Shown: in pieces, positions 7,433-63,806 of the stretch
Layout of the letters: every line of letters starts with the position of its first letter
How positions within the stretch are numbered: position 1 is the stretch's first letter
Assembly: GCA_046759445.1 (NCBI GenBank)
Contig: JBHICG010000002.1
Location: 1-64,000, forward strand
Reading direction: 5' to 3'
From: Candidatus Scalinduaceae bacterium
GTDB lineage: Bacteria; Planctomycetota; Brocadiia; Brocadiales; Scalinduaceae
Length of the DNA stretch: 64,000 bases
The notes under the pieces: generated by a model
The model's database searches: none
Told to the model about the DNA's origin: nothing
The model's input: the letters and a program-made list of their open reading frames with translations, nothing else
Position numbers and translations under genes: made by a program

Positions 7433-7647
7433 TAATAGTGTGCCTGGCATAAACCCACGAAAAATCACTAAAATGTGCATTTTACATTGCAATTGTAGCA
7501 AATATGGGTTTTACTAGTCCTGGATACCCTTTTGTATTAAAGTGGCTACATATTTACTTGATTATTCGAGTAAGATTTTGCATATACACATTATTGAGCT
7601 AGTACAACTATTCCTATTTTATAACACACTTTTTGAATCACTAGAAT

Positions 7648-8322: not shown

Positions 8323-8385
8323 ATCTTAAAACAAACTCTGACACCTTAGGCTTGCATATCGAACTATTAAAAGTTAAAATATAGC

Positions 8386-8766
8386 ATGAAGTTAAACCAC
8401 ATTGGTATAATTAATAAGAGCGAAGAGCAGGCACTACCGTTTTATAAGGATTTTTTAGGTCTTGAAAAGACAAAAGAAATTATATTGTCTCCGGAACTTT
8501 CAGAGCAATTGTTTTCTCTTTCTCAAGAGGTAAAAGTTTTAGTTTTTGAAAATGACGGGATAAAGATCGAGGTGTTCATATCTGATTTTCAACTTGCCCA
8601 CCCCAATTTTACGCATTTCGGTATAATGGTGGATAATTTTTCAGAGATCACAGAAAAGGCTAAGCGGTCTAATGTTGACCTTATCATTGGGAAACATAAG
8701 GAGAAGACCGTCTACTTTCTAAAGGATTTTTCAGGCAACTTAATTGAAGTAAAACAAAAACCGTAG
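8386..8766 (+). CDS. VOC/glyoxalase family protein
   Basis: LNHIGI..FYKDFLGL, THFGI, LKDFSGNLIEV. Confidence 0.85.
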   Translation: MKLNHIGIINKSEEQALPFYKDFLGLEKTKEIILSPELSEQLFSLSQEVKVLVFENDGIKIEVFISDFQLAHPNFTHFGIMVDNFSEITEKAKRSNVDLIIGKHKEKTVYFLKDFSGNLIEVKQKP

Positions 8767-8893
8767 AATTGGTATCAAAGTACTTTTGCTTTGTTGTCTA
8801 TTAAATTAAATAGAGACTTATGCATAACCTATGGCAATGAATATATAGGGTTGCATATTTGATATTGGTTCCTGAATAATTAACTGTATTATT

Positions 8894-9514
8894 TTGAAGA
8901 GGCATAATATGAAATGGTTATTTGCTTTATTTTTGTTCATTGCTATTGTTCTGTCTTCATTACAATTTAGAACTAAACAAGTCTTCAGTTTTCAAAAGGA
9001 GACTCCTGAAGTAGTGATAGAAAAGTACCTGGACGCTGTTATCTCAAATGATTATCAGACCGCATATTCATTTGTCTCAGATAACAATAAAGAAATCAGG
9101 GAATGGCTGGAATTTTTAAATTTTGTTACCAGTATAGCCCCTGCAAAGCTTATTTCAACAATCCATCTGGCTCATTCTTTAACCAGACACCAGATTGTTA
9201 AAATAGATTTAACCAGTGATGGAACTGCGGTCATTAATGTTGAATCAATAGCCCCAAACATGGAAAAGATACTTGAAATTACTCATTCTGAAGATGAAAT
9301 TAAATCATTATATGACAACGGCAGCTTACCCTTAAAGCAGAAACAAGGTACTTTCATTCTGGGTAAGGAGAATAATATTTGGAAGATAAAAGAAGTGGAG
9401 GGGACATCCGGAGATTCTGTTTCTAAATTAGCAATGGATTTAGCAGAAAAATTACTCAGCAAAGAAGAAAGCCTAAAACTGGATAATGAAATCAGGAATT
9501 ATCAGAATAAGTAG
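8894..9514 (+). CDS. Hypothetical exported protein (NTF2-like/DUF4878-like)
   Basis: Signal/TM segment, TPEVVIEKYLDAV...DYQTAYSFVS, C-terminal KENNIWKI. Confidence 0.6.
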   Translation: MKRHNMKWLFALFLFIAIVLSSLQFRTKQVFSFQKETPEVVIEKYLDAVISNDYQTAYSFVSDNNKEIREWLEFLNFVTSIAPAKLISTIHLAHSLTRHQIVKIDLTSDGTAVINVESIAPNMEKILEITHSEDEIKSLYDNGSLPLKQKQGTFILGKENNIWKIKEVEGTSGDSVSKLAMDLAEKLLSKEESLKLDNEIRNYQNK

Positions 9515-30720: not shown

Positions 30721-31132
30721 TTCAGAAGCAGGTAATAAGCCGAGTTCTGTTTTAGATGACCATTAATCTGGTCTCGATGTTACCATCGAGATCAATCGGC
30801 TTACCCAGAAGCTTTTAAGCGGACCGCTTATACTTCTTTATTTAGCCTTTCTCCCAGTGGGGTTTACCATGCCCCTCCAGATCACTCGGAGAGCGGTGGG
30901 CTCTTACATTAAGCTCGTTAATTTGAGCCCCACCTTTTCACCCTTACCCTGTCAGACGATTACTTCATCAATCTTACAGGGCGGTATATTTTCTGTGGCA
31001 CTTTCCTTGGGATCACTCCCACTCCGCATTATGGAGCACTGTGTCCTATGGAGCTCGGACTTTCCTCTCCAGAACTATTATAGTAAAATTTGAATTTTTA
31101 GAACTGGAGCGGCCATCTCACCTACTTCTGAA
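30721..31132 (-). ncRNA. rnpB: RNase P RNA (bacterial type A)
   Basis: Minus strand has GAGGAAAGUCCGAGCUCC, AGUGCCACAGAAAA, AAGGGUGAAAAGGUG, GGUAAACCCCAC and ACAGAACUCGGCUUA; ends pair (UUCAGAAGUAGGU/ACCUGCUUCUGAA). Confidence 0.96.
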
Positions 31133-39147: not shown

Positions 39148-39996
39148 TTAATTTTTATTTATGATGTTCCATACCTTTTCTGCAATCTCTTTCTTAGGTA
39201 AAATTTGATTGTTTATTGTACAACCAATTGTGAACCAGCTACTATCTTCCTTAGCAAGATATGTGTATATGTCTTGAACCTTCTTTAAATAATTTATATC
39301 TTCTTCATGTAAATCCGCTTCTGGTTTGAACCCCTGACTGCCTTTAACTCTAGCCTTGATTAATTCTTGTGAAACATCTATGGATACATGAAGATAAATG
39401 GTTAGGTTAGGCCTGGGGATAGCATACACTTTATATTCAAGTTCTTCTATCCATTTAAAAAATTTGTTTCGTTCACCGATGTCTTTAATCTTTGCTCCCT
39501 GATGTGCCATATTAGAACAAACGTATCGGTTAGATATAATTATGTTTCCTTCATCGAGCCAATTGTCCAGCTGATCTTTCATTTCCCATCTATCACCCGC
39601 ATAAAGCAGAGAAGAAAGGTATGGGTTTACCTCATCAACCTTTGATTCAATTCCTTCGGTGTTTGTAATTTTAGTCAAAAATTTGTTTGAGGTCAGATCA
39701 GATCTATAATTTCTTTTCTTGGGAAGTGGGTAATTTTTTAGATGTTTTTTTAATTCTTGCGGCCACCCAAATTCACCATTCAGATATCTTTCGATCATAT
39801 CTGCAAAAAACGACTTGCCATATTGTGGAAAATCAGTCATTTGTACCTGATAACCTGCTTTCAGCAACCTTTCCACAAGTAGATGAGTTTGAACTGTCTT
39901 TCCACTCCCATCAGTACCCTCTACAACAATAAGTTTGCCCCTCCGCTTGCTATCATTCTGGTGGGTGGGCAAGCTATGAGGTGAATTCATAATCAA
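39148..39996 (-). CDS. tmk: Thymidylate kinase with internal insertion
   Basis: EGTDGSGKT P-loop, FPQY, LLYAGDR, NRYV.SN. Confidence 0.9.
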   Translation of the reverse strand: MIMNSPHSLPTHQNDSKRRGKLIVVEGTDGSGKTVQTHLLVERLLKAGYQVQMTDFPQYGKSFFADMIERYLNGEFGWPQELKKHLKNYPLPKKRNYRSDLTSNKFLTKITNTEGIESKVDEVNPYLSSLLYAGDRWEMKDQLDNWLDEGNIIISNRYVCSNMAHQGAKIKDIGERNKFFKWIEELEYKVYAIPRPNLTIYLHVSIDVSQELIKARVKGSQGFKPEADLHEEDINYLKKVQDIYTYLAKEDSSWFTIGCTINNQILPKKEIAEKVWNIINKN

Positions 39997-47207: not shown

Positions 47208-47283
47208 GGGCAGATAGCTCAGTTGGTAGAGCACGGGACTGAAAATCCCGGTGTGGTCGGTTCGATTCCGACTCTGCCCACCA
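47208..47283 (+). tRNA. tRNA-Phe (GAA)
   Basis: 76-nt cloverleaf, acceptor stem GGGCAGA/TCTGCCC, anticodon loop CTGAAAA, GTTCGATTC T-arm, encoded CCA. Confidence 0.98.
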
Positions 47284-47313
47284 AATCTAAAATATTTTAA
47301 CTTTGCGTTTCTC

Positions 47314-47742
47314 TTTAAAATAGATAAGGCGGTAATATTAAGAAAAGGGGAAGACATTATTCTTGTAGCATGCAGCGCTTTAGTCGCCAATTCCCTAAAG
47401 GCGGCAACAATGTTGTCCGATAAAGGGATAGAAGCTACCGTCGTAAATATGCATACGTTAAAGCCGTTAGATGTAGAAACGTTAGTGCAAGCAGCAAAAG
47501 AAACAGGTGCTATTGTAACGGCGGAACAACATGTTCTTGATGGTGGTTTGGGGAGTTGTGTAGCCGTTGCCCTTGCTAAAGAATATCCGGTGCCAACGGA
47601 GATGATTGGTATAGATAATCGCTTTGGTCAATCGGGTGACCCGGAGATACTCTTTAAAGAGTATCATTTAACTGCTGAAGACATAGTAGATGCGGCGATG
47701 AAGGTAATTAAGAGGAAAAATCAGAATAAGGGAGTGATTTAA
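47314..47742 (+). pseudogene. 5'-truncated transketolase C-terminal subunit
   Basis: FKIDKAVILRKGED..NMHTLKPLD..TAEQH..GGLGS..FGQSG; pyrimidine-binding domain and a credible start are missing. Confidence 0.75.
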
Positions 47743-50157: not shown

Positions 50158-50907
50158 ATGGATAGCAACTCTATCAAGAATCTTTTGGAAAAGGTAAAAA
50201 AAGGCGAGCTTACGATAGAAAAGGCATTACGTTTCTTTAAAGATTTTCCATACAAAGACCTGGAATTTGCCAAGGTTGACATCCACCGAACTATTCGCTG
50301 CGGGTTTCCTGAGGTGATTTTCTGCGGCGGTAAGACGCCTTCTCAAGTCTTTAATATTGCCGACCAAATCGTTAAAAACGGAGCAGATTTGCTGGCAACT
50401 CGTGCTAATAAAGAGATTTATGAGTATATTTCTCAGAAATATAAGACTGCGCGATATAATGACATTGCCAAAACAATAGTCATTCGAAAATCACGCCATA
50501 AGAAAAAGAAGGGTCTAGTCTTAATTATAACTGCTGGGACTTCAGACATTCCTGTAGCTGAAGAAGCAAAAGAGACAGCGGAAATAATGGGAAACAACGT
50601 AAAGGTACTTTATGATGTCGGAGTTGCTGGCATTCATCGCCTGCTTAAAAACAAAAAAGATATTTCAACTGCCAGGGTGATTATTGTTGTTGCTGGTATG
50701 GAAGGAGCGCTTGCCAGTGTGGTTGGTGGAATGGTTGATCGCCCCGTCATTGGCGTACCAACAAGTGTTGGATACGGTACAAGTTTTGGTGGAGTTGCTC
50801 CGCTATTGGCAATGCTGAATAGCTGTGCCGCTAACGTTACCGTCGTTAATATTGACAATGGTTTTGGAGCAGCTTATGTTGCGTCACTGATAAATAGTAC
50901 CAAATAG
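50158..50907 (+). CDS. larB: LarB-like (PurE-related) carboxylase
   Basis: FAKVD.HR..R.GFPEVIF, AGTSDIPVAEEA, DVGVAGIHRL, AGMEGAL, VNIDNGFGAA. Confidence 0.9.
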   Translation: MDSNSIKNLLEKVKKGELTIEKALRFFKDFPYKDLEFAKVDIHRTIRCGFPEVIFCGGKTPSQVFNIADQIVKNGADLLATRANKEIYEYISQKYKTARYNDIAKTIVIRKSRHKKKKGLVLIITAGTSDIPVAEEAKETAEIMGNNVKVLYDVGVAGIHRLLKNKKDISTARVIIVVAGMEGALASVVGGMVDRPVIGVPTSVGYGTSFGGVAPLLAMLNSCAANVTVVNIDNGFGAAYVASLINSTK

Positions 50908-51042
50908 TGAGCGATTTACATAGATTTTCGATCAACCCATCAGATGTTAGCTGTGCAAAAATTACGCATTATATACTTCAAAACTTATTGATTCTATGGT
51001 ATAAAACATTAACTAGATTAAAAAATATTGAGTGAGTTCATA

Positions 51043-51477
51043 ATGATGGAAAAGATAAGAAATGATAAAATTTTAATACATAGATTATTGTCAGAAGCGC
51101 GTAAGGTTATAAAGTTTTCTTACTCACCATATTCAAATTTTCGTGTAGGTGCAGCAGTCTTAGATGAAAATGGCAAGATTTACACTGGTTGTAATATTGA
51201 GAATGCATCTTATGGGTTGGCAATCTGTGCAGAAAGGGTTGCTGTATTTAATGCTGTATCCCAAGGAGTTGAGAGAATAAAGGCAATTGCTATATATTGT
51301 GATAAACAGGATTTTTGCTCACCATGCGGTGCATGTAGACAGGTTATTTATGAATTCTCTAAGGATGCAATAGTTATTTTGGGAACTAAGGGAACTGAAT
51401 ATACTATAAAGACAATTGCTGAATTGTTGCCTTTGGGGTTTTGTCCCAAAGATTTAAGGCATCAAAATTTAGATTAA
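51043..51477 (+). CDS. cdd: Cytidine deaminase (homotetrameric type)
   Basis: YSPYSNFRVGAA, GCNIENASY, CAERVA, PCGACRQ, ELLP; ATG 51043/51046 preferred. Confidence 0.93.
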   Translation: MMEKIRNDKILIHRLLSEARKVIKFSYSPYSNFRVGAAVLDENGKIYTGCNIENASYGLAICAERVAVFNAVSQGVERIKAIAIYCDKQDFCSPCGACRQVIYEFSKDAIVILGTKGTEYTIKTIAELLPLGFCPKDLRHQNLD

Positions 51478-51482
51478 AGTCT

Positions 51483-52268
51483 ATGGGAAAGGGTACAAAT
51501 AGAAGGAAGGTGCCAGAGGGATTTGGGGAGGAATTCTGGAAAGGATTTTGGCAAACAATTCAAAGTGTTTTAGAGATAATTAAAATTCTCCCCCTATGGC
51601 AACGTTTACTTGGAATACTTGCTGTTTTTGTCTTCATTATTGTTATTGTTTCTATAATAGCAATCGGTGATAGTACTGTTGTTATAGTCGGTCTTATTAT
51701 TTTTGGTCTCCTTATTTTGGTTTTAGGAGTTGCCAGTTATTTTCCAATTATTAGATTTAAAGCAGTTAAGAAGGAAATGACTAAGTTACCTAAAAACACA
51801 ATTTCTGAGCTCTTAAAAGGTATTACTATAAATGTATCAAGAATATTGAACATCCCAAATGAAAAACTTAGATCCAATATATTTATGCTTGATGAAAATG
51901 ATTATTTAAAAATTCCTAATGGACTCCATTATAACATCGGAACTCCTGTTGAACTTTCAATAAAAATTCCACCAGGGTACGGTAGCACAGGGAATGCATT
52001 TCTCAACAAAGAGCCAACTATTGCAATTCTCAAAGAAGACTGGGGCAAGTATATTCTTGATGATGTGGAAATGCAAAAAGTGGATAAGAACTTAGTGTGG
52101 ATTGTCTCAATGCCAATCCCCTCATCAGGGACTCTTGGTGAGATAATTGGAGTGTTGAATGTAGATTGTCTTAATCTAAAAAAGGGAAGGACTGATCTTG
52201 AAAGAATAGTTGATGACATGTGGTACTGGGTAAACTTAATATCACCCTTATTATTAAGAAAGGAGTAA
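51483..52268 (+). CDS. Two-TM membrane protein with C-terminal GAF-like domain
   Basis: Two long hydrophobic helices, then LRSNIF..IPPGYGSTGNAF..WIVSMPI..IIGVLNVDC (GAF-like strand pattern). Confidence 0.72.
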   Translation: MGKGTNRRKVPEGFGEEFWKGFWQTIQSVLEIIKILPLWQRLLGILAVFVFIIVIVSIIAIGDSTVVIVGLIIFGLLILVLGVASYFPIIRFKAVKKEMTKLPKNTISELLKGITINVSRILNIPNEKLRSNIFMLDENDYLKIPNGLHYNIGTPVELSIKIPPGYGSTGNAFLNKEPTIAILKEDWGKYILDDVEMQKVDKNLVWIVSMPIPSSGTLGEIIGVLNVDCLNLKKGRTDLERIVDDMWYWVNLISPLLLRKE

Positions 52269-52270
52269 CT

Positions 52271-52468
52271 ATGAAGTTGAAGGAAAAAACTCAATCAGAA
52301 CACTCTATAATTTACGTACCAGAGCATTTTGGGAGCAAGTCAATATCGGGGCCGAGCAGTGCTTTCATGGAAACGGTTAAGGAGATAAAAGCCTTAAATT
52401 TTGTTGGAAAATCTACTGATGAATTTATAAATGTATGCAAGCTCAATATTCGCAAAAGCCCGTCTTAG
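52271..52468 (+). CDS. 65-aa hypothetical protein (or frameshifted N-terminus of the next gene)
   Basis: AGGAG RBS 5 nt before ATG 52271; overlaps the next ORF by 34 nt. Confidence 0.5.
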   Translation: MKLKEKTQSEHSIIYVPEHFGSKSISGPSSAFMETVKEIKALNFVGKSTDEFINVCKLNIRKSPS

Positions 52469-52992
52469 GAATTGATATAGATAACGTTATTTCACAAACT
52501 GATACCACAATAAGGAAACTCATACAGCGTCGATATGGTATATCTCTTATGCAAGCTCATATCATACATTTTGATTATCACAAATGTGGAGTAAATAAGG
52601 AACAAGAGAAAGAGATATTTTCTTTATTTAATACCTCTGAATGCGAAAAATTAAAAGTCATCCCAGGTGCTGCAAGAGCCTTATCTATTCTTAGCAACAC
52701 TTATACGGTCATATTAGTAACGAGTAGGAATCCTTCTATAAAACAAAAGACCGAAGAATGGCTGCATACAAAAGGAATCCATTATGACGAACTTATCTTT
52801 AATGATAGAAAGCATGATATAGATGTCAATTTCGACTACTTTATAGAGGATTGTTGGGAATATTCGATAAAGCTGGCTGAAAAAGGCATAAAAGTTATCT
52901 TATACGACTATCCTTGGAACAGAAACAAAGGAACCTCCCCTAATATTTTAAGATTTAAAAATTGGAATGAAATCCTAATTTTTTTAACATAG
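52435..52992 (+). CDS. HAD-superfamily 5'(3')-deoxyribonucleotidase (NT5C-like)
   Basis: LGIDIDNVI (DxD), IPGA, LVTSR, TEEWL, K, FIEDC, PWN. Confidence 0.88.
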   Translation: MQAQYSQKPVLGIDIDNVISQTDTTIRKLIQRRYGISLMQAHIIHFDYHKCGVNKEQEKEIFSLFNTSECEKLKVIPGAARALSILSNTYTVILVTSRNPSIKQKTEEWLHTKGIHYDELIFNDRKHDIDVNFDYFIEDCWEYSIKLAEKGIKVILYDYPWNRNKGTSPNILRFKNWNEILIFLT

Positions 52993-53333
52993 GTACTATT
53001 TCTACGTTGTCCTAACTGTCTTCAAGCCCTGGGGAAAAATGGACAAATCCTATTTTTTTTAACAAATGATTCAAATGCTAAATATTTAAGCATTGCAAAG
53101 ATCGCAGTTACAGTGTTGGTATACCATATTACCCAAAAGAGGATAATAACGATATAAGAAAACATTTATTGTGTCTCTTCCTATAAATTTGATTTAAATC
53201 TATTACAACCCTCATTTCGTTGTATACTTATTTCTTTACAATCCCAATACTACTTACGCCTTGCTTTTTCAGTTTTTTCTTTGTACATTCAAGCACTTTA
53301 ATTAAGGTTATAGAATTTACGTAACGTTAAATA

Positions 53334-54230
53334 ATGTATAAAGTAAAAGACCTACCTAAACTTATTTCCAGAAAAAAAAATTCACACAAAGGAAATTATG
53401 GTCGCGTATTGGTTCTCGCTGGTTCTCCTGGCATGACGGGTGCTGCGTACCTTTGCTCGAAAGCCGCATTGAGGAGCGGTTCAGGTTTGGTTACGTTGGG
53501 TATACCTGAAAGCCTGAATCTCGTAATGGAAACCAAACTGACATGCGTGATGACATATCCACTACCAGAAACGAAGGTGCTCACATTATCTAATAAGGGT
53601 CGAGAAGAAATCCTGGAGCTATGTAATAAACACGATGTTGTAGCATTAGGTCCCGGTCTTTCACAACAAGCAGAGACAAAAAAGCTAGTCCACTGGTTAA
53701 TAAAAACAATAGACCGCACCATTGTGATTGATGCTGATGGGATTAATGCGCTTGTCGGTAATATTAATATATTGTACAAGATAAAAAGAAACGTCATAAT
53801 CACACCACATCCCGGAGAGATGTCACGTTTATTAGACCTTGGTTCGGCAAAGGATGTACAAAAAAAAAGACTTAGCATTGCAACAGAGTTTGTTCAATCA
53901 ATGCATAAAAGATTAGGAAAAGAAAAGGGCATAACCTTAGTCTTAAAAGGGGATAAGACAATAGTTGCAGATTACGAAAAGATATACATAAATCAAACAG
54001 GTAATCCCGGAATGGCAACTGCTGGCACTGGGGACGTCCTTACGGGAATTATCGTATCCCTGATCGGTCAGGGGTTAAGTGAATTTAATGCCTCCCAGCT
54101 TGGCGTGTACGTCCATGGTCTTGCAGGTGATATAGCATCGAAGGAAAAAGGAGAGACATCAATGATTGCTTCTGATATTCTAGACTCTTTACCTGCTGCA
54201 TTTTTAAGATACGAAAAGAGGTGTAGGTAA
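53334..54230 (+). CDS. nnrD: ADP-dependent NAD(P)HX dehydratase
   Basis: SHKGNYG, GPGL, DADG, TPHPGEM, GNPGMATAGTGDVL. Confidence 0.93.
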   Translation: MYKVKDLPKLISRKKNSHKGNYGRVLVLAGSPGMTGAAYLCSKAALRSGSGLVTLGIPESLNLVMETKLTCVMTYPLPETKVLTLSNKGREEILELCNKHDVVALGPGLSQQAETKKLVHWLIKTIDRTIVIDADGINALVGNINILYKIKRNVIITPHPGEMSRLLDLGSAKDVQKKRLSIATEFVQSMHKRLGKEKGITLVLKGDKTIVADYEKIYINQTGNPGMATAGTGDVLTGIIVSLIGQGLSEFNASQLGVYVHGLAGDIASKEKGETSMIASDILDSLPAAFLRYEKRCR

Positions 54231-54616
54231 TGGCTCTATCAATCGAACAACTTGAATCATGGGAAAAAGAGGCGCGTATTCACCTTGACAAGCTTCATGA
54301 AGTAGATGAGATGATCAAGAGAAAATTAGTAGACAAGAACCTTGCCAGGCGGATGGGAACCGTTGCAGAGGATAATATACAGATACTAATTTCAAAACTA
54401 AGGAACTCCCTGGAGGATTCAGATATATCAGAAATATGTGCCGTACTAGACAAGATCAAGAATAAAGAATCCGATAATGAGGTGAAGGATGGATTGGAGA
54501 AGATAGCGCAAGAAAAAGGTTGCCACAAAGAGTTGATTGAGATGATTAAGGATTATGATGGTCACATACTTTTACTTGCAATGCAGGTTATAAAGAAATT
54601 ACTAAAACCTGAATAA
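54230..54616 (+). CDS. Hypothetical helical protein
   Basis: 128-aa ORF coupled to nnrD (TAATG overlap). Confidence 0.65.
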   Translation: MALSIEQLESWEKEARIHLDKLHEVDEMIKRKLVDKNLARRMGTVAEDNIQILISKLRNSLEDSDISEICAVLDKIKNKESDNEVKDGLEKIAQEKGCHKELIEMIKDYDGHILLLAMQVIKKLLKPE

Positions 54617-56148: not shown

Positions 56149-57750
56149 CTAAATCATCAAGCTATTGTAATACTTTTTTCTGTATTTCTGAAGAATAAAG
56201 CTATCCTTGCATGCTGAGCAGTTCTTTTGTGGAAGGGGTGAAAATTTTATCCAATGGTTGGGTCTAGAAAAGAGGTCATGATCTATGTAAGTGACATCTC
56301 CCTTTAGCGCTCTATCAGGAAAGATGCGTTCTTTAAGAATTTCTCCTCCAATGAGTATTCCGGGAAGAACCGCTGCAAAAGGTATTGGAACTATCAAAGA
56401 AGCCTGTCCCTCAAAACTCATTTGGCCGCAATGTAAAGATACCCAATCTGTAAAACGTTCTCCTAAAGATGGTAATGGAAATCCTAACCTACATTGGACT
56501 TCTTGCATTTGAGATATATGCCAGTCCTTAAAATATCCGTTATTATTACGCAATGTTTTTACTTCTTCGTATGGGAGTCCTATGAAATTTGCTAAATCTC
56601 TGTCTGGATCCTGCTTATTGTTATTTTGCAAGCAAACATGACAAGCAGTTAGACCCATTTCTACCCTTTTTACATAGAACCCTCTTTCTGCCACACCAGC
56701 ATCAAATATAATTCTAGGAAGGTCCCACTGAATTGCTTGTCGAGTTTCTAGGTTGTCAACGGTTGAAATAAGTAAATCGAAAGAATCGTACTTAGTGATC
56801 TTTGAGAACTCTAAATAAGTCTTTTTATAAGCATCAATTTCAAGGTTCGGAAATTGATCAAATAGTTTTCGTATTAGGTGGACTTTTGGCACTTTTTCCT
56901 TTGCATCTTTTCTGATGGCATATATATAACGATTAAGATTTGACAAGGTCACTTCATCTGGGTCTACCAAAACTACTTTACCTTGTAACTCAGGCAGACA
57001 TACAAGGCAATATAGACAAGCACCCCCTCCAGCGCCAACTCCAACTGTAAATACTTGCCCGAGATCAATAGTTTTAGGTAAAGTAGGGTTATCAGCATTT
57101 AACTTAATTTGTTCGTACGAAAAGAGAGAAAAGTGTATTTCGTCTTCAAGTAAATTCATTCTGGGTAGTTCGCTTGATTTAATACCTAAAGTTGTACCTT
57201 TATATTCTAAGACTCTTTTGAATATTTCGCTTACCGCCCAACAAGCAGTTGCCATAGCTCCTATTGGATTGAAGTTCGATGAAAATTCTCTGTCGTCACT
57301 TTTAGCCACTAGATGTACAAACCAACCGTCAGATGAGATTGAGACCATGTTAGGATGCCTTATACCTGTTTTTCCTATACCTATTAGTACTAATGGCTCA
57401 CAAGATAAAGAAGGCAAAATTCGAAGATTAACCCCGGTGGATATAATAGAAGAAAAATGGGTAACGGCTTCAGTTAGACTAGTATTATTTACTAAAGGGA
57501 TAGGGGTTATAAGTCTAGAATTTCGTTCAAAGATTACATAAATTTCTGTAATAATTGGATGAAGTCGTAATAAAAGGTTAAGAACTGTAAAGAAAGTAAG
57601 TTGACCATTTGGATTAACAGAAGCTTCTTTTCCTAATATTACTATTATAGGCGCAGGCACCTTAGCCCATCTATGAACTTCTTGTGGGGAAGATGGCATG
57701 AGCTGCCTAAGAAGTGTCATCGTCCTTAAGCACTCCTGTTCAGATTTCAT
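56149..57750 (-). CDS. E1-like (ThiF/UBA) ubiquitin-like activating enzyme, BilD-like
   Basis: N-terminal degenerate adenylation-like domain; VGVGAGG, DPDEVTLSNLNRY, STVDN, CHVC and CSAC Zn pairs, candidate catalytic HCG. Confidence 0.88.
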   Translation of the reverse strand: MKSEQECLRTMTLLRQLMPSSPQEVHRWAKVPAPIIVILGKEASVNPNGQLTFFTVLNLLLRLHPIITEIYVIFERNSRLITPIPLVNNTSLTEAVTHFSSIISTGVNLRILPSLSCEPLVLIGIGKTGIRHPNMVSISSDGWFVHLVAKSDDREFSSNFNPIGAMATACWAVSEIFKRVLEYKGTTLGIKSSELPRMNLLEDEIHFSLFSYEQIKLNADNPTLPKTIDLGQVFTVGVGAGGGACLYCLVCLPELQGKVVLVDPDEVTLSNLNRYIYAIRKDAKEKVPKVHLIRKLFDQFPNLEIDAYKKTYLEFSKITKYDSFDLLISTVDNLETRQAIQWDLPRIIFDAGVAERGFYVKRVEMGLTACHVCLQNNNKQDPDRDLANFIGLPYEEVKTLRNNNGYFKDWHISQMQEVQCRLGFPLPSLGERFTDWVSLHCGQMSFEGQASLIVPIPFAAVLPGILIGGEILKERIFPDRALKGDVTYIDHDLFSRPNHWIKFSPLPQKNCSACKDSFILQKYRKKYYNSLMI

Positions 57751-58241
57751 ATTCGAATCTCCAAAGGTAAGATAATGAATCTTTTCTGGATTTCCTTAAC
57801 AGGCAATTTTCTCCACCATAGTTTTCCTTGGTACTCGTAAATATAACAATTCTTTGAAAGTTCCATTCCTGAAAGACAATAGTTCCATACAACTATTGAG
57901 ATGTAGCCAATATGAAAACTCACTGGATGCCTTTCATCACCTGTTGAATGTTCTACCTGGTTTGGGTGACTATGAACTTGCGCTAGTAAGGTTAAACTAT
58001 GCCTTGAAAGCTTAGTTACAAGTCTTATCAAATCGTTTTGCTCGAGAGAAACTCCCTCTCCCCACTCAGAACCCCCAACAAACATAGTGGTTATAATAGA
58101 AGATTCTTGTGCTCTTTTACCAGCCCAAAGTACAAGACCTTCTTTACCGATTTCCCCCTTTAGTTTTAAATACGCTTCTGTGCCAGATATTATCTTATGA
58201 GAGATATAGAATTTATTAGCTATGGCGGTAACTAACTTCAT
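57747..58241 (-). CDS. JAB/MPN+ metallopeptidase, BilC-like
   Basis: EGLVLWAG glutamate, QVHSHP...HSTGD, G.ISIVV. Confidence 0.9.
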   Translation of the reverse strand: MKLVTAIANKFYISHKIISGTEAYLKLKGEIGKEGLVLWAGKRAQESSIITTMFVGGSEWGEGVSLEQNDLIRLVTKLSRHSLTLLAQVHSHPNQVEHSTGDERHPVSFHIGYISIVVWNYCLSGMELSKNCYIYEYQGKLWWRKLPVKEIQKRFIILPLEIRI

Positions 58242-58666
58242 TGATAAGCTTTGTCCATTTCAACTTGAATATCTTCTAATACCTTAGATAATAAATATTT
58301 CTTTACATTCCAAGTATAGTTAGTATGTAGAATCTCATGAAACTCTCTAATGCCTGGAATACACAACTGTGGTGGATTACGCCCCAGCGCAGCCTGAAAG
58401 GCTGATCCTAGTTTTGGCCAGAATTGCTTCCCTTCTTGCCTAGTCTGTGGATCAACAAAAGTAAAAGCAGGAGCTCTTTGTGGGTATCCCTCGTAATATA
58501 AGCGTGCCATAAATTTTAAGGTTGGACTCTTTTTAGGATACATAAGTACATATACATATAACCCCTCTGGTGTTACCTTCCATCCGTGATAAATAAACAG
58601 GTTATTATGCGCTTGGAGACAATCTAATTGTTCTTGAATTTTGTGACTAATAACTTCACTTTCCAT
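58238..58666 (-). CDS. E2-like conjugating protein (CEHH type), BilB-like
   Basis: YPQRAPAFTFVDP (E2 YPxxxP motif) and LCIPGIREFHEILH. Confidence 0.82.
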   Translation of the reverse strand: MESEVISHKIQEQLDCLQAHNNLFIYHGWKVTPEGLYVYVLMYPKKSPTLKFMARLYYEGYPQRAPAFTFVDPQTRQEGKQFWPKLGSAFQAALGRNPPQLCIPGIREFHEILHTNYTWNVKKYLLSKVLEDIQVEMDKAYQ

Positions 58667-58920
58667 TAGATCACCACTGCACCAAGAGGGGTTAGAATAA
58701 GCGTAGCACCGTTTGGCACATTTGATTCGCCGATAGTATCATCCTCAGACAGGGGATTACCATTGAATATTAAACGATAGTTGTCCGCTTGTGACGGATC
58801 GATCCCCAACTTAGCCATAGTAGATACTTTCAAAGCTCGAATAGGTTGGTTCGTATTTACCTCAACTTCTAAAGGCTGTTCTGTTGCCGCAGATTCAATT
58901 GTTAGTATAAGTTTTTCCAT
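58666..58920 (-). CDS. Ubiquitin-like beta-grasp protein, BilA-like
   Basis: LEVEVN.NQPIRALK..YRLIFNGNPLSEDDTIGESNVPNGATLIL parallels ubiquitin [29 protein letters not shown]; GAGG RBS. Confidence 0.88.
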   Translation of the reverse strand: MEKLILTIESAATEQPLEVEVNTNQPIRALKVSTMAKLGIDPSQADNYRLIFNGNPLSEDDTIGESNVPNGATLILTPLGAVVI

Positions 58921-58998
58921 TGCATTTCCTCCTATTTAACTTAAATTAAAAATTTTTAATTTTTCATTAATCACGAGATAGAACTTGAAAATATAGTA

Positions 58999-59096
58999 GT
59001 TAATAAATATTTAACCATAGCTTAACGTACCTGTCAAGGGAAAAATTTACTAATAGTTAATTATTTATTGACCTATCTTTCACAACTCGTTATACT
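58999..59096. promoter_or_regulatory. Divergent promoters with phased operator-like repeats
   Basis: Plus strand TTGACC (59068-59073), 17 bp, TATACT (59091-59096); minus strand TTGACA (59037-59032); TTAA-like tetramers at 11-bp spacing. Confidence 0.6.
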
Positions 59097-59124
59097 TTAT
59101 GCAATTAAGGAGACCTAATAAATA

Positions 59125-59472
59125 ATGGAAGACCAACTTGCCAAACGAATTGGACATCGCATAAAGAGCAAAAGAATTGAACGCAATATAAATCAAAACA
59201 AATTGGCTGAGAAGGTAGGTATAAGTCCCGCAGCAATAAACCAGTTTGAGAAAGGAGAAAAGAAACCATCGTCCGATGTACTCACTAGGATCGCAAAAGA
59301 ATTAAGTGTCTCCACTGACAGTCTTCTTACTGAAAAGGGGGATGAAATTTTCGTAGATGAAGAGGTTAAAATAGCTTTTAGAGCATTCAAAAAGTTGGAA
59401 AAAGGGGATAGAGACATAATCGTAAAGAATATACAATTTCTTAAAGAACAAGCGAAAAGAAAAGGAAAATGA
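59125..59472 (+). CDS. XRE-family HTH repressor, CapH-like
   Basis: QNKLAEKVGISPAAINQFEKGEKKPS HTH; C-terminal AFRAFKKL helix; AAGGAG RBS. Confidence 0.88.
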   Translation: MEDQLAKRIGHRIKSKRIERNINQNKLAEKVGISPAAINQFEKGEKKPSSDVLTRIAKELSVSTDSLLTEKGDEIFVDEEVKIAFRAFKKLEKGDRDIIVKNIQFLKEQAKRKGK

Positions 59473-60248
59473 ACATAGCAAAACTTTACGCAAAAGATCT
59501 TCTCATAGAATTTGAGAACTTATCTTTACCTATAAATCCAAAGAAAATTGCTGAGGCTAAAGGGATTATAATTAAAGAAGATGATCTAGAAGGCTTTAGT
59601 GGTATGTTGCTTAAGGTAGGCAAAAGAACTCTTATTAGCGTTAAAAGAAGCATAAGAGAAAGAGGGAAAAAGAGATTCACACTAGCCCATGAACTAGGGC
59701 ATTATCTTTTGACTAAACACTTAACACCTTCAGATATCTCATTTGAATGTACTGATGAAGACATACATCATTTCGGAGAAAAAGATAATAAAGAGTCAGA
59801 CGTGAATGCATTTGCAGCAGAGTTACTTATGCCAGAAGAATTTTTCAGAGAAAGAATTAGGTTAAGCGATCTTACTTATGAACTGATAGATAGTCTTACA
59901 AAAGATTTTGATACCACACTTACGGCTACTGGTAGAAGATTTGTGGAACTTAGTTCTTCATATGCATTAGTTTGTTCTCAAAATTCTAAAATAAAGTGGT
60001 TCCTTAAGGGAGAAGATTTTCCTTATTATTTGTACTCTTCAGGTACCGTAAGCGAATCTTCGGTTGCCATAGATTTTTACTAGAGAAAAAAATTACCTAC
60101 TTGTTTTGAATTGGTACCTGCAAACGCTTGGATTGATGACAACAGAATAGAGGACATGGAAATCTTGGAAATGGCTATACCACTTCCATACTATAATCAG
60201 GTTTTAAGTTTTTTAAGCATTGATAATTCCAATGAAGATAATGACTAG
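59469..60248 (+). pseudogene. ImmA/IrrE-family metallopeptidase (CapP-like) with in-frame TAG at 60081-60083
   Basis: RFTLAHELGH, E.DVNAFAAELLMP; frame stays open for 54 codons after the TAG (..VPANAWIDD..EMAIPLPYYNQVLSFL..) to TAG 60246-60248. Confidence 0.8.
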
Positions 60249-60309
60249 TAGACCCAAGTCAGACTTCTACTGATAAATTGCCTAAAATCGGCCAATTAAG
60301 CATAATACA

Positions 60310-60326
60310 TTTTTTAACGGTCGTTG
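60310..60326 (-). repeat. Module-boundary motif, copy B
   Basis: TTTTTTAACGGTCGTTG. Confidence 0.7.
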
Positions 60327-60512
60327 TCCCTAGTTTGTATAAACTTATAGAAAGGCTAATAAACCTCTGTTTCACTTGTCTATCGTATGATGGACATGTA
60401 TAATTTGATGAGTTATGGGGTAAGAATGCTACAAAGCAAAAAACTTGACTCGTTATTCCAATGGTGATAAAATCTTTAATACTTTCCTTAAAGTTCACCC
60501 ACTAGACCTATC

Positions 60513-61964
60513 ATGTCTATCCTTAACAAAGCAGAAATAGTAAATATTAAAAATGAAGATGATTGGATGGATGTTTTGTCTTCATGCGAAGGCCATTTAT
60601 CAATAAAAGACTACCCCAAGATATCTGAATATTTATCGAATAATATCAAGACAGTATTTATTGAAAAAGATTATATTGATAAAGATTTTCGAGATACATT
60701 TTATAACTTCTATTCAAAAAAATTCGCAGATTACCCCAACAAGGCTATTAGACTTCACTTTTTTACTACCCTTATTAGCAACGATGACATTTATGATTTA
60801 GACAAGTATCAAAACCATTATGTTGGTTTTATAGTTATAAGGCCTACAAGAATTAACACAATAGGTAGAACTATTTTAGATCCTTCTAAAATATCAAAAG
60901 CAGGCGGATATATTTGCTCTACAGATTATAAAGTCCATATTCTTGGTGCAGAATTAAATGTTAATGGGTTTCCTTACATAAGCCAAGACACAGACGTTAC
61001 TGTTTGTGCTCATGCCGCTTGTTGGATGGTTTTTAGATATTTCAGTGAAAGATATCCAACTTATGCAGAGATTTTACCGTTTAAGATTTCCCAATTAACA
61101 GAAAACCTTTCTTATGGCAGACTTGTTCCATCAAAGGGGTTATACCTTTCTCAAGTTGCAGAAATATTTTCAAAGTTCGGATTTTATCCTGAAATTTATA
61201 TTAAAGCTCAGTATCAAGATAATTTTGACAGGCTACTTTATTACTATATTGAATCGGGTTTGCCAGTAGTTGCTGGACTTAGCAGACATAATCATGCAAT
61301 AACAATCTTGGGCCATCTTTCTAATTATGAAAGATCTGTTTCAAATAACAGTGTAGAATATGTTGATGGTCTTATAATTAATGATAATAATCATCTCCCT
61401 TACCAAAAACTTTTAAGAAGTAATCTTAAAAAAGAAGGTTACTGTTCAAAGTATCACTTTGAAGATATAGATAGCTTTATCGTTCCCCTGTATGAAAAAA
61501 TTTACTTTTCTGCCGAATATGTTGATGCTATGGCGGAAGCTTTGTTAGATGACACACATTTTGGTATTAACGCTTTGTCTCAGCTTGTAAAGAAAAACAA
61601 CATTATAAAAAGAATATTTCTTACATCTTCTAAGTCCTATAAAATACAAAGAAGAAAACAAAATTTACCTTTTAATCTGTCATCGACATACTGTGGAATG
61701 AATATGCCAAAGTTTATTTGGGTATGTGAATTATCCACCTCAGAATTTTACTCAAAAGGTGAAATTATAGGTGAAATTATTTTTGATGCTACAGCAAACC
61801 ATATTGATACATTCTGTTTTTTGGTTATACATTACCCAGACTTTATAGTATTTAATGATAGAAATTATTTGACTTATAATCCAGAAAGGTTTATAAAGGG
61901 CACACTTAAAACAAAAGATTTGCTATCATATCAATTATATAAAAATAATCTAAAGGAGATATGA
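60513..61964 (+). CDS. Papain-fold (C39-like) cysteine protease domain protein
   Basis: PYISQDTDVTVCAHAACW (Gln..Cys), ESGLPVV, HAITILGH (His), IINDNN. Confidence 0.7.
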   Translation: MSILNKAEIVNIKNEDDWMDVLSSCEGHLSIKDYPKISEYLSNNIKTVFIEKDYIDKDFRDTFYNFYSKKFADYPNKAIRLHFFTTLISNDDIYDLDKYQNHYVGFIVIRPTRINTIGRTILDPSKISKAGGYICSTDYKVHILGAELNVNGFPYISQDTDVTVCAHAACWMVFRYFSERYPTYAEILPFKISQLTENLSYGRLVPSKGLYLSQVAEIFSKFGFYPEIYIKAQYQDNFDRLLYYYIESGLPVVAGLSRHNHAITILGHLSNYERSVSNNSVEYVDGLIINDNNHLPYQKLLRSNLKKEGYCSKYHFEDIDSFIVPLYEKIYFSAEYVDAMAEALLDDTHFGINALSQLVKKNNIIKRIFLTSSKSYKIQRRKQNLPFNLSSTYCGMNMPKFIWVCELSTSEFYSKGEIIGEIIFDATANHIDTFCFLVIHYPDFIVFNDRNYLTYNPERFIKGTLKTKDLLSYQLYKNNLKEI

Positions 61965-61965
61965 T

Positions 61966-62139
61966 ATGTCAATTATGAAATTTCCACCAATGGAAGAAAA
62001 AAAAGGATTTTTAGATACTAATGAAAAGGTTCATGAGGCTTGGTGTTCTTTAGAAAAAGCAACGGAGAAAGATTATAAGAAATACGATGAAGCGAAAAGG
62101 GCTGTACAAGAAATATCCCAAACTAAACTTTTAGACTAA
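61966..62139 (+). CDS. 57-aa hypothetical helical protein
   Basis: Not in the ORF track; AAGGAG RBS, starts 1 nt after the upstream stop; MSIMKFPPMEEKKGF...ISQTKLLD. Confidence 0.7.
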   Translation: MSIMKFPPMEEKKGFLDTNEKVHEAWCSLEKATEKDYKKYDEAKRAVQEISQTKLLD

Positions 62140-62256
62140 GATTAAAACGAAGAAATTATTTCCCATAAAATAACAGTTCGGTCTTACATTTAAATTAATC
62201 AACTCACTTCTCAAAGATTTCAATTGCTTGGTTTATGCTTATATCCCATCGTAAGA

Positions 62257-62272
62257 TTTTTAACGGTCGCTG
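62257..62272 (-). repeat. Module-boundary motif, copy C
   Basis: TTTTTAACGGTCGCTG followed by TTGTATATGCTC. Confidence 0.75.
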
Positions 62273-62329
62273 TTGTATATGCTCAGTAATTAAGTAACTC
62301 TTTTGGTATAATAAATCAAAAACATTTTT

Positions 62330-62525
62330 CTAAGACAGAATCATCCTTTCAACTTTGGTTTTTGCTGTTTTAATAATTTTTTTTGCTTCTTCTTGTAACT
62401 TTTCTGCATTTTGCATTCATTCATTAACTTCATCTACGATTTTTTGCTGAATATTTAGAGATGGGATTGGGATCTTGGTGGTATTCAATAATTCAACATT
62501 TACCCCTGACTGATTATTCCAATTT
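62330..62525 (-). pseudogene. Restriction-modification specificity subunit (HsdS-like) C-terminal remnant
   Basis: NQSGVNVELLNTTKIPIPSLNIQQKIVDEVNE*MQNAEKLQEEAKKII..KVERMIL with internal TGA at 62417-62419. Confidence 0.7.
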
Positions 62526-62866
62526 GTACATATAGTAAAAAATATCTTATGTTTTTGATATATATTTAGAATTATTGTTAAGTATTCTGGGCAAAATAGG
62601 GCCAATAAGAGAAAGGAAATAAATTACGTTTTTATTGCATAACATTTTACTTAAGCTAACTGTAAATTAGTCATACCTTTCAATATTTTATCTCCTTCCA
62701 TTCTACATTTCTTTACTGCAGTTAGGGTTCATTCTTCCAGCAATGTTTTTGTCTAAAATAATTTCTCTATCCAAGTTCTGTAAGTTCTTCAATTACTTTT
62801 AAGTCTGTATCTGTGGCTTCGTTAATATTTGGCATATTAATACACACTCATCTTTTTTGTTGAGGC

Positions 62867-63032
62867 TTACTTTTCTATGATATCTTCTGTGGTTGTGAAA
62901 ATAGCTCCAGCATCTTTCATTTCATTCAGTGCTTCTTCTACCCTCTTCGTTAACAGCCTTAATCGCATCTGTAACCAGTGAAACTTTGTACCCACGTCTT
63001 AGCAGTTCAAGGATGGCCACCTTAACACAAAA
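62867..63032 (-). pseudogene. Nicotinamidase/isochorismatase C-terminal remnant with frameshift
   Basis: FCVKVAILELLRRGYKVSLVTDAIKAV then a shift to EEALNEMKDAGAIFTTTEDII. Confidence 0.65.
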
Positions 63033-63130
63033 TTAATTAAGGAACCTAATTATATCCTTGCTGTCTTTTGTATGATAAATAATTATTACAATCGGTAAAT
63101 TATTTTTCGCTTCCACCTGAATAACCCTTT

Positions 63131-63346
63131 TTAATAGTTCTTGTTGTGACATTTATCGAGACGCTTCAAGAGCATTTTTTTGAATTCTTTTTCTGAAAGA
63201 TTCGGAAATCTCTTACGTAATCCATGAATAAAAAGTTTATTTGCAAATTCGGACAACTCAAATGCCTTAAGCAACCTCCTTTCAGGTGACATTTTACGAA
63301 GCACTTGAATGTATATCTTATGATTTGGACGTTCTTTAATATTCAT
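63131..63346 (-). CDS. Small hypothetical protein (type often found beside nucleotidyltransferase genes)
   Basis: LRKMSPERRL..AFELSE..GLRKRFPNLSE.E. Confidence 0.6.
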   Translation of the reverse strand: MNIKERPNHKIYIQVLRKMSPERRLLKAFELSEFANKLFIHGLRKRFPNLSEKEFKKMLLKRLDKCHNKNY

Positions 63347-63425
63347 ATTTGATAAAGTTCTTTTAAGGCTTCTTTTTCTCTTTCTTCACTAACAACTTTA
63401 ACTGTTCCACAATATTTTATCACTT

Positions 63426-63806
63426 CTATAACTGTTTTTTTAACCATTTTAGAACCTCTTTGCCTTTTTCAAATATTACCTTTGTTTTCTCTTTATCATA
63501 GTCTTTTAGCATCTTCTGGAGGTCGTCTGGATAATATGGGAAGATTCTCATCTTATTCAGGGCAGAAATAGTATCAGAAAATTCTTCAGGAAGCTTTAAG
63601 TGAACTTTTTCAATGAGATACGGTAGATTGTTTGTGTTTAAGGGTATTGCGTTGAATTTCTTCTGATAAAGCCCTTTAAGGGCTTTTTCAATGGAAAGAT
63701 GGCACAGAAATACGGCATAAAAATACCTTTCGGCCTTAAGCATATACTCGGCAGTATCCATATCGTAATCAGCCTGACTCAGCCATTCTTCAGGTTTTTT
63801 TGCCAT
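63426..63806 (-). CDS. HEPN domain protein
   Basis: EWLSQADYDMDTA..YAVFLCHLSIEKALKG..YPD; AGGAG RBS. Confidence 0.88.
   Translation of the reverse strand: MAKKPEEWLSQADYDMDTAEYMLKAERYFYAVFLCHLSIEKALKGLYQKKFNAIPLNTNNLPYLIEKVHLKLPEEFSDTISALNKMRIFPYYPDDLQKMLKDYDKEKTKVIFEKGKEVLKWLKKQL

Follow-up and report, generated by a model that had tools for sequence, protein, structure and literature searches.

Gene content of the locus

The window analysed in this work is the whole stretch of 64,000 nucleotides (nt) taken from a Candidatus Scalinduaceae bacterium (GenBank assembly GCA_046759445.1, contig JBHICG010000002.1, positions 1 to 64,000 of the forward strand). The locus under study comprises four co-directional, tightly packed genes, read from the window sequence at positions 51043-52992 of the plus strand, which encode a cytidine deaminase (Cdd), a protein with a predicted transmembrane (TM) hairpin and a GAF-like domain (TM-GAF), the product of a small open reading frame (ORF) and a nucleotidase of the NT5C type. 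The first three genes were found together again in a Dehalococcoidia genome, and it is argued below, tentatively, that they may form a mobile cassette of the anti-phage or abortive-infection kind. The genes and the features within them are as follows.

51043..51477, plus strand: cdd, tetrameric-type cytidine deaminase, 144 amino acids (aa), or 143 aa if the start is at 51046
51483..52268, plus strand: TM-GAF protein, 261 aa, with a basic N-terminus, a hydrophobic hairpin and a GAF-fold domain
51576..51746, plus strand: hydrophobic hairpin of the TM-GAF protein, residues 32-88, flanked on each side by basic residues; turn of 3-4 residues
51792..52265, plus strand: GAF-like domain of the TM-GAF protein, residues 104-261, which defines the family
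52260..52265, plus strand: Shine-Dalgarno motif AAGGAG, inside the end of the TM-GAF gene and 5 nt before the ATG of the small ORF (a sequence reading)
52271..52468, plus strand: small ORF of 65 aa, conserved alongside the TM-GAF gene as its partner
52435..52992, plus strand: NT5C-type HAD 5'(3')-deoxyribonucleotidase, 185 aa, local fourth gene

An earlier note on this DNA had described four packed same-strand ORFs, named their likely products and placed them between the housekeeping genes larB and nnrD. Re-reading of the junctions bore out the packing, with a gap of 5 nt between cdd and the TM-GAF gene, a gap of 2 nt between the TM-GAF gene and the small ORF, and an overlap of 34 nt between the small ORF and the NT5C gene. 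The product names also stood (Cdd by its match to TIGR01354, NT5C by PF06941 and the GAF domain by a structure model and Foldseek), and Pfam identified the flanking genes as an AIRC/LarB-type gene and an NAD(P)H-hydrate dehydratase gene, as the note had them. The description of the locus as AT-rich was right in direction and too strong in degree: its G+C content (GC) of 0.339 lies below the window mean of 0.366 (standard deviation 0.026), only mildly so, at the 13.5th percentile of 1950-nt windows. The genes flanking the locus have a GC of 0.415 and 0.408.

In a mechanical ORF list three of the genes begin at TTG or GTG codons that lie further upstream. The ATG starts used here are supported by database proteins of exactly matching size, P0001 (261 aa) for the TM-GAF protein and P0154 (65 aa) for the small ORF; the database Cdd P0157 (143 aa) begins one codon later than the window's, at 51046. 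Since homologues exist for all four, they are not chance ORFs.

The deaminase scored 154.3 bits against TIGR01354 (cut-off 113.65), 154.1 bits against NF004064 (cut-off 74) and 78 bits against PF00383. The zinc-binding and catalytic motifs CAER and PCGACRQ and the substrate- or nucleoside-binding motifs NxEN and FxVGAA were invariant in an alignment of 23 sequences, the invariant residues being C61, A62, E63 and R64, P93, C94, G95 and C97, and N50, E52 and N53. Judged by these profiles and motifs the window's Cdd is a catalytically complete enzyme of the tetrameric type, predicted from its family to act on nucleosides; it has no match in PHROGs. Drainage of the dCTP pool, offered in the earlier note as one possible outcome, was set aside as unlikely because both the TIGR01354 score and the motifs point to a nucleoside-level Cdd.

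The TM-GAF protein has no match in Pfam, NCBIfam, PADLOC or PHROGs. None of the Pfam profiles GAF, GAF_2 and GAF_3 matched it at E<=0.01, and GAF_2 matched 6 of 50 relatives, always under its cut-off of 28.6 bits. A search of solved structures by sequence with a 60-member family profile yielded no more than weak matches, to membrane segments (best E 0.098). The fold was recognised by modelling. An AlphaFold2 model built on a 60-sequence alignment reached a mean pLDDT of 89.8, and about 98 across residues 110-250, and consists of helices at 38-61 and 64-101 followed by an alpha/beta domain. In a Foldseek search of the PDB the model matched GAF domains at a probability of 1.00 and with E down to 4.9e-7, among them free methionine sulfoxide reductase (fRMsr; 3ksf, E 4.9e-7), YKG9 (1f5m), the cAMP-bound GAF domain of Lcd1 (5w10) and CyaB2 (1ykd). 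A structure search of the Atlas with the Atlas's own model of the protein gave template-modelling scores of 0.5-0.6 to GAF proteins. According to these models the C-terminal part of the TM-GAF protein has the GAF fold.

A Kyte-Doolittle scan marked hydrophobic segments at residues 32-50, 51-69 and 70-88, and by the positive-inside rule both the N-terminus and the GAF domain are predicted to be cytoplasmic. In the 60 aligned sequences R130, E157, G167, W206, P211 and D228 of the GAF-like domain were invariant and N132, F134, G165, G170, S209 and N226 nearly so; the conserved polar residues R130, N132, E157, S209, N226 and D228 are only suggestive of a putative small-ligand pocket. No kinase, cyclase or other output domain was found in the protein, and the architecture of two TM helices and a GAF domain proposed earlier agrees with the model, the Foldseek matches and the hydrophobicity scan.

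The TM-GAF gene and the small ORF are translationally coupled through the AAGGAG motif and the 2-nt gap. The small protein belongs to no family in Pfam, NCBIfam, PADLOC or PHROGs. Its homologues P0155 and P0156, 82% and 71% identical to it, lie on contigs that match in size those of two TM-GAF relatives described below (P0002 and P0003, respectively), and the small-ORF alignment has 12 invariant columns. The fourth gene product matched PF06941 with 60.4 bits (gathering cut-off 24.8), carries the HAD nucleophile motif DxD within GIDIDNV at residues 12-18 and is the only protein of the locus with a PHROG match (phrog_420, E 2.8e-20). The GC of the NT5C gene is 0.328.

Rfam gave no RNA element in 50700-53500 at E<=1, and consensus scans of the window for promoters and terminators remained at chance level (13 found vs 11.6 expected, and 1 vs 1.5). 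A gap of 340 nt (52993-53333) separates the NT5C gene from nnrD and contains a putative, strongly hydrophobic 47-aa ORF at 53022-53165 on the minus strand.

The three-gene cassette in other genomes

The gene context was seen directly at two loci, the window and one other. A scan of species-representative genomes yielded one relative, in a metagenome-assembled genome of Dehalococcoidia (locus L001), where the genes are arranged as follows.

7532-7957: cdd
7959-8780: TM-GAF gene, 1 nt after cdd
8797-9021: small ORF, 74 aa
9134-9793, plus strand: HhH-GPD glycosylase gene, the next same-strand gene after the triad

The two deaminases are 54% identical (E 1e-56) and the two TM-GAF proteins 37%; the small proteins share 32% identity over 31 aa with a pairwise E of 5e-7. 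The Dehalococcoidia TM-GAF protein, like that of the window, has no PADLOC match. The neighbours of the triad are unrelated to those in the window: an HMGL-like synthase and YceD are encoded upstream, an LPG-synthase-type membrane protein and GidB downstream. The two loci probably belong to different phyla, since an Atlas look-up of the window's PpiD-like protein gave the PVC group as a lead.

The composition of the Dehalococcoidia locus sets the triad apart. The overall GC is 0.542, the three cassette genes have 0.427, 0.442 and 0.444, and the 500-nt windows covering 7501-9000 (0.434, 0.452 and 0.414) are the three lowest of 33, the remaining ones lying between 0.484 and 0.612. A GC-rich hairpin followed by a T-run was read by eye between the small ORF and the glycosylase gene; the promoter and terminator consensus scan of this locus, itself at chance level, did not list it. 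Since the triad coincides with the GC trough and ends in the hairpin, cdd, the TM-GAF gene and the small ORF entered this genome as one block. The glycosylase was considered as a fourth component and rejected for its native GC (0.567) and its position behind the hairpin. Its best matches, all below cut-off, are a MagIII-type 3-methyladenine glycosylase and a DR2438-type monofunctional glycosylase, and it probably lies next to the cassette by chance.

The NT5C gene is missing from the Dehalococcoidia cassette, where the glycosylase gene takes its position. The four-gene unit of the earlier note therefore reduces to a conserved core of cdd, the TM-GAF gene and the small ORF, to which NT5C is a local fourth gene. 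The two-step route from (d)CMP to a uridine-type product, which the note had built on both enzymes, becomes for the same reason a local addition at most.

Further linkage was assessed indirectly, from equal size of the longest contig of each protein cluster combined with at least one shared listed source. The comparison set consisted of the best 120 of 7679 Cdd matches, that is 119 besides the window's own. The following pairs were obtained.

contig size 2311: TM-GAF P0003 with Cdd P0158, 90% identical to the window's Cdd
contig size 2402: TM-GAF P0002 with Cdd P0160, 77% identical to the window's Cdd
contig size 10996: TM-GAF P0007 with Cdd P0159, 80% identical to the window's Cdd
contig size 3714: TM-GAF P0008 with Cdd P0162, 69% identical to the window's Cdd
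contig size 5290: hydrolase-type relative P0012 with Cdd P0206

Five of 29 GAF-family proteins of known contig size matched the contig of one of the 119 listed Cdds, vs about 0.29 expected by chance, and the sources overlap for all five. The four matches of TM type are not due to chance because their deaminases rank 2nd, 3rd, 4th and 6th among the Cdd matches. Four more metagenomic contigs thus appear, from contig size and source, to carry cdd together with a TM-GAF gene, and the link between these genes on which the earlier note had staked its proposal holds beyond the window, directly in the Dehalococcoidia triad and by matching size and source on these contigs. In a Cdd tree of 121 rows a single clade of 11 rows (SH-aLRT 97) holds the deaminases of the window and of the Dehalococcoidia locus, P0158, P0159, P0160 and P0162, and five others. 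Six of the 11 rows are linked to a TM-GAF gene, and these are all six of the deaminases linked to GAF proteins of TM type.

The components of the cassette diverge at different rates. Between the window and the contig of size 2311 the identity is 90% for Cdd, 55% for the TM-GAF protein and 71% for the small protein; the corresponding values for the contig of size 2402 are 77%, 72% and 82%. The identities of the TM-GAF and small proteins co-vary, and those of Cdd run the opposite way. In both comparisons the GAF domain is better conserved than the hairpin region (66% vs 39%, and 80% vs 69%). The co-variation is a hint, from sequence identities, of a physically interacting and fast-evolving pair of effector and regulator beside a constrained enzyme.

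The GAF-like family and its exchangeable N-terminal modules

The word-indexed search by itself gave only 6 proteins. A profile search of 1.84 billion cluster representatives gave 685 matches at E<=1e-3, 350 at E<=1e-10 and 64 at E<=1e-30. By this search the proteins that share the GAF-like domain make up a family of about 685 clusters (at 50% identity), which is uncurated. The N-terminal architecture was tabulated for 153 of the family's proteins.

110 of 153: N-terminal hydrophobic or TM segments (74 with two)
22 of 153: N-terminal alpha/beta (serine) hydrolase
17 of 153: domain only, or fragment
2 of 153: N-terminus matched by local BLAST to the gasdermin-type one of P0081
2 of 153: other N-terminal part

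In the hydrolase-type proteins the Ser (in AHSxG), Asp and His residues were invariant across 18 sequences. A model of a hydrolase-GAF protein reached a pLDDT of 93.5; its N-terminal half matched serine hydrolases, monoglyceride lipases and thioesterases, and its C-terminal half the same GAF domains as the TM-GAF model. The Pfam matches of these relatives to hydrolase families were mostly below cut-off.

Two long relatives, P0081 (789 aa) and P0121 (817 aa), match the PADLOC profile of bacterial gasdermins (bGSDM) at E 1.7e-18 and 1.7e-12. Both consist of an N-terminus matching this profile, a middle part (with TPR in P0121) and a C-terminal domain of the window's family (35% identity, E 1e-26; hhalign 99.6%), and the alignment shows that P0081 begins with a hydrophobic segment ending in a cysteine. 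Such proteins could, from their domain order, be gasdermins controlled by a built-in sensor, not by a protease. PHROGs gave no match for the gasdermin or hydrolase fusions.

The hydrolase module was also found in other company. P0127 matched 26 plasmids by tblastn, through its hydrolase half only. Two examples were inspected, on the Klebsiella pneumoniae plasmid NZ_CP141988.1 (locus L002, 5476-9386) and the K. variicola plasmid NZ_CP092633.1 (locus L003, 774-5729). In one form the module is joined to DUF6932 (PDC-M63A), next to homologues of the Olokun proteins OloA and OloB and to a pair encoding an ATPase and a UvrD-helicase. In the other it is joined to a receiver domain, matches the PADLOC candidate PDC-M60C and is encoded by the third gene of an operon resembling PDC-M60.

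By analogy, a constant sensor-like domain joined to alternative modules that attack membranes or lipids is a pattern typical of ligand-gated abortive-infection effectors, and it is known from CBASS and Pycsar. The replacement of the hairpin by a hydrolase or a gasdermin, together with the acquisition of the cassette as a block in the Dehalococcoidia genome, favours an effector role for the TM-GAF protein.

A candidate conflict cassette and the alternatives

The observations to be accounted for are gene order and coupling, folds, catalytic motifs, transfer of the triad as a block and exchange of N-terminal modules in the family. The explanation put forward is quite possibly correct, though short of probable: the triad would be a mobile conflict cassette of the anti-phage or abortive-infection kind, in which the GAF domain senses a pyrimidine nucleoside whose level is set by Cdd, the hairpin damages the membrane and the small protein regulates. 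Every functional step in it, from the ligand and its source to the direction of the Cdd effect, the damage to the membrane and the part played by the small protein, is proposed by us and not observed.

The mobile unit would consist of Cdd, the membrane-hairpin GAF protein and the partner of 65-74 aa, with NT5C added in this genome. The cytoplasmic GAF domain would bind a small ligand and so act as the sensor, and the state of the ligand would govern the assembly or oligomerisation of the hairpin into a membrane lesion, the killing part. Cdd would set the concentration of the pyrimidine nucleoside read by the GAF domain, and it might do so in either of two directions. In the first, a flood of (d)CMP and (deoxy)cytidine during infection would be turned by Cdd into the rarer (deoxy)uridine as the "on" signal; in this genome NT5C might first remove the phosphate and so feed Cdd. 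In the second, Cdd would hold an activating (deoxy)cytidine low as a safety catch and the effector would fire when that fails. The small protein would be a co-evolving regulator that, like an antiholin or an antitoxin, holds or tunes the effector. A defence-like island that starts about 3 kb downstream of the locus was counted in favour of the conflict cassette.

A wider claim, quite unlikely as it stands, is that the GAF-like domain is the sensor of a widespread, unrecognised class of immune effectors, whose versions carry a TM hairpin, a lipase-like hydrolase or a gasdermin and are switched by a free pyrimidine nucleoside and not by a cyclic or oligo-nucleotide. A plain Cdd would then turn an infection-induced flood of (deoxy)cytidine into a (deoxy)uridine alarm, or remove the alarm in healthy cells.

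Several points weigh against a conflict cassette. The four proteins have no PADLOC match at E<=0.1, and neither the TM-GAF protein nor the small protein has a PHROG match. Both loci that can be viewed directly sit among housekeeping genes, the motifs leave the window's Cdd indistinguishable from a housekeeping enzyme, and uridine and cytidine, being ordinary metabolites, would be odd alarm signals. The Cdd link was demonstrated for one branch of the GAF family; for 24 of the 29 proteins no such link was seen, in a test that could hardly detect one (best 120 of 7679 Cdds, many contigs under 3 kb), and the pair P0012-P0206 could be the single match expected by chance. The co-variation of the TM-GAF and small proteins comes from three loci. 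The gasdermin assignment comes from one profile, and phmmer searches of the PDB with P0081 and P0121 were empty. The tblastn searches of plasmids with P0001, P0021, P0084 and P0130 were likewise empty, no plasmid match through the GAF domain was obtained for any query including P0127, and the tblastn search of the phage collection with P0001 gave nothing.

The locus might instead be an ordinary pyrimidine-salvage operon without any part in conflict, whose TM-GAF and small proteins would regulate or anchor the metabolic pathway, acting for example as a membrane sensor that responds to nucleosides. We regard this as unlikely but deserving serious attention. It agrees with a Cdd that scores above the equivalog cut-off and keeps all catalytic and substrate motifs, with an intact HAD nucleotidase that could recycle (deoxy)cytidine nucleotides together with Cdd, with the housekeeping flanks and the lack of any matching defence model, and with the frequent binding of metabolites by GAF domains, as among the PDB matches. 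However, NT5C is not conserved with the triad, and in the Dehalococcoidia genome the triad is a compositionally foreign block that behaves as an accessory element. Relatives in which a serine hydrolase or a gasdermin stands in place of the hairpin are hard to fit to salvage, and the TM-GAF protein diverges much faster than Cdd (55% vs 90% in the same pair of loci).

Unlikely to a similar degree, and again to be taken seriously, is a self-contained toxin-antitoxin or holin-antiholin-like module made of the TM-GAF and small proteins, with Cdd a passenger that became linked in one lineage. The translational coupling of the two genes is what such a module would display, their identities co-vary and disagree with those of Cdd, and for most of the GAF family no Cdd link was demonstrated. 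Against this, Cdd lies inside the low-GC block of the Dehalococcoidia genome, 1 nt from the TM-GAF start, the linked deaminases form a clade of their own, and a hydrolase-type relative also appears, tentatively, on a contig with Cdd. The comparison with holins is of interest here, as some predicted viral structures that match the TM-GAF model (E 6e-5 to 2.4e-3, template-modelling score at most 0.59) carry an annotation as class III or T-type holins. Holin T of phage T4 has one TM helix and a periplasmic domain, whereas the window's protein has a hairpin and a domain predicted to be cytoplasmic. There is no sequence relation between the two (hhalign probability 0.25%) and no PHROG match, so homology to holins was rejected at the sequence level and the match is one of predicted fold; the solved structures of holin T were not among the 50 PDB matches listed for the TM-GAF model. 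What the systems share, as a working analogy only, is an alpha/beta domain protein anchored in the membrane and paired with a small protein: according to the available portions of two reports, the small antiholin RI binds, inhibits and so controls T4 holin T (PMC11413866, PMC8385771).

Very improbable, finally, is resistance to or detoxification of cytosine-nucleoside antibiotics, with the Cdd-type enzyme inactivating the drug and the membrane GAF protein sensing it: some small deaminases of the Cdd fold do inactivate nucleoside antibiotics and the cassette is mobile, but the enzyme is by score a true cytidine deaminase equivalog with its ribose-binding motifs kept, the two-helix hairpin is not a transporter, and the gasdermin and hydrolase relatives do not fit.

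Returning to the conflict cassette, it was filed under the kind of system in which an enzyme makes or removes a nucleotide-derived signal and a ligand-gated effector kills. The combination as such matched no described system: PADLOC gave no match, and literature searches on cytidine deaminase or GAF proteins in anti-phage defence, on gasdermin-GAF proteins and on transmembrane GAF effectors of abortive infection returned no description of this cassette, in agreement with what the earlier note had supposed. Of that note as a whole the gene calls, the link to cdd and the lack of a described match have stood; the four-gene unit, the two-step route and dCTP drainage were changed or not supported.

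The TM effectors of Pycsar and CBASS resemble the TM-GAF protein in carrying a ligand-binding domain on membrane helices and in the exchange of the killing module among relatives. Unlike theirs, the window's sensor has a GAF fold and not a cNMP-binding or SAVED domain, and no cyclase or CD-NTase was found by Pfam in the four genes or their immediate flanks, nor by PADLOC. Bacterial gasdermins are approached through the relatives P0081 and P0121, which fuse a bGSDM-profile N-terminus to the same GAF-like domain; the window's TM-GAF protein has no bGSDM match in PADLOC. Known bGSDMs are released by an adjacent protease, whereas none was seen next to this cassette. AvcD-type enzymes, which act by depleting dCMP and dCTP without a separate effector, are larger and built of several domains, in contrast to the window's 144-aa single-domain Cdd equivalog, for which PADLOC has no match. 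The AvcD and dCTP-deaminase systems do, so far as the accessible part of the source goes, employ a member of the cytidine/deoxycytidylate deaminase superfamily against phages (10.1101/2021.03.31.437871).

Kongming pairs KomA, a deaminase of the adenosine-deaminase type, with a KomB/KomC (SIR2) effector. As outlined in the accessible text of the reports, dITP is made there with the help of phage nucleotide kinases, and the effector is a SIR2 complex (10.1101/2024.12.20.629578, PMC13454610). The likeness, within the same limits of the sources, is that a base-deaminating enzyme stands upstream of a ligand-activated effector and that the deaminated base is the immune signal; the difference is that the window has a tetrameric-type Cdd acting by family on nucleosides and that TM-GAF is its presumed effector. 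No SIR2, pyrophosphatase or KomA-type domain was found in the four proteins, for which Pfam shows only dCMP_cyt_deam and NT5C and PADLOC was used in a 2023 library that may predate Kongming. CapP/IrrE offers a GAF domain in a bacterial immune or stress sensor, where, by the part of the source available, it helps a metallopeptidase to bind single-stranded DNA (PMC13228613); the window's protein has no peptidase domain in Pfam. Since that GAF domain takes part in DNA binding, immune GAF domains can have ligands other than nucleosides.

The defence- or mobile-looking island spans 56149-63806. It contains a ThiF/E1-like gene of 533 aa (56149-57750, minus strand) in an apparent operon with a 164-aa gene without a match and a 142-aa PF14455 (Metal_CEHH) gene, an HTH_3 and Peptidase_M78 pair (59125-60083, plus strand) resembling ImmR/ImmA or CapH/CapP, a 483-aa gene without a match (60513-61964) and a HEPN protein (63426-63806, minus strand). 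Just beyond the locus a 128-aa ORF (54230-54616, plus strand), whose ATG overlaps the last base of the nnrD stop codon (54230), has no Pfam or NCBIfam match and only a weak PHROG match (E 0.0011). At 39148-39996 on the minus strand, 11 kb from the locus, another pyrimidine-nucleotide gene encodes a dTMP-kinase-like protein of 281 aa; its kinase match covers only residues 120-258 or so, in two stretches, leaving some 110 N-terminal residues unexplained. A tRNA at 47208-47280 (plus strand, 72 bits) is overlapped by the listed start of a Transketolase_C-only ORF (47251-47742), which may be truncated or encode a split subunit, or whose true start may lie later. The RNase P RNA of bacterial class A lies at 30721-31128 on the minus strand (278 bits, full length).

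Should the defence reading fail, two things would still have been defined, the uncurated family of GAF-like proteins (about 685 clusters) and a mobile cassette of three genes that is directly testable. Should it be true, the family would provide a new sensor domain for bacterial suicide effectors, including a direct fusion to gasdermin that is possibly independent of a protease. It would also add a second deaminated-base immune signal after Kongming, at the nucleoside level and from an enzyme that looks like one of core metabolism, and would call for caution in annotation, as the label "cytidine deaminase" can hide a mobile immune gene.

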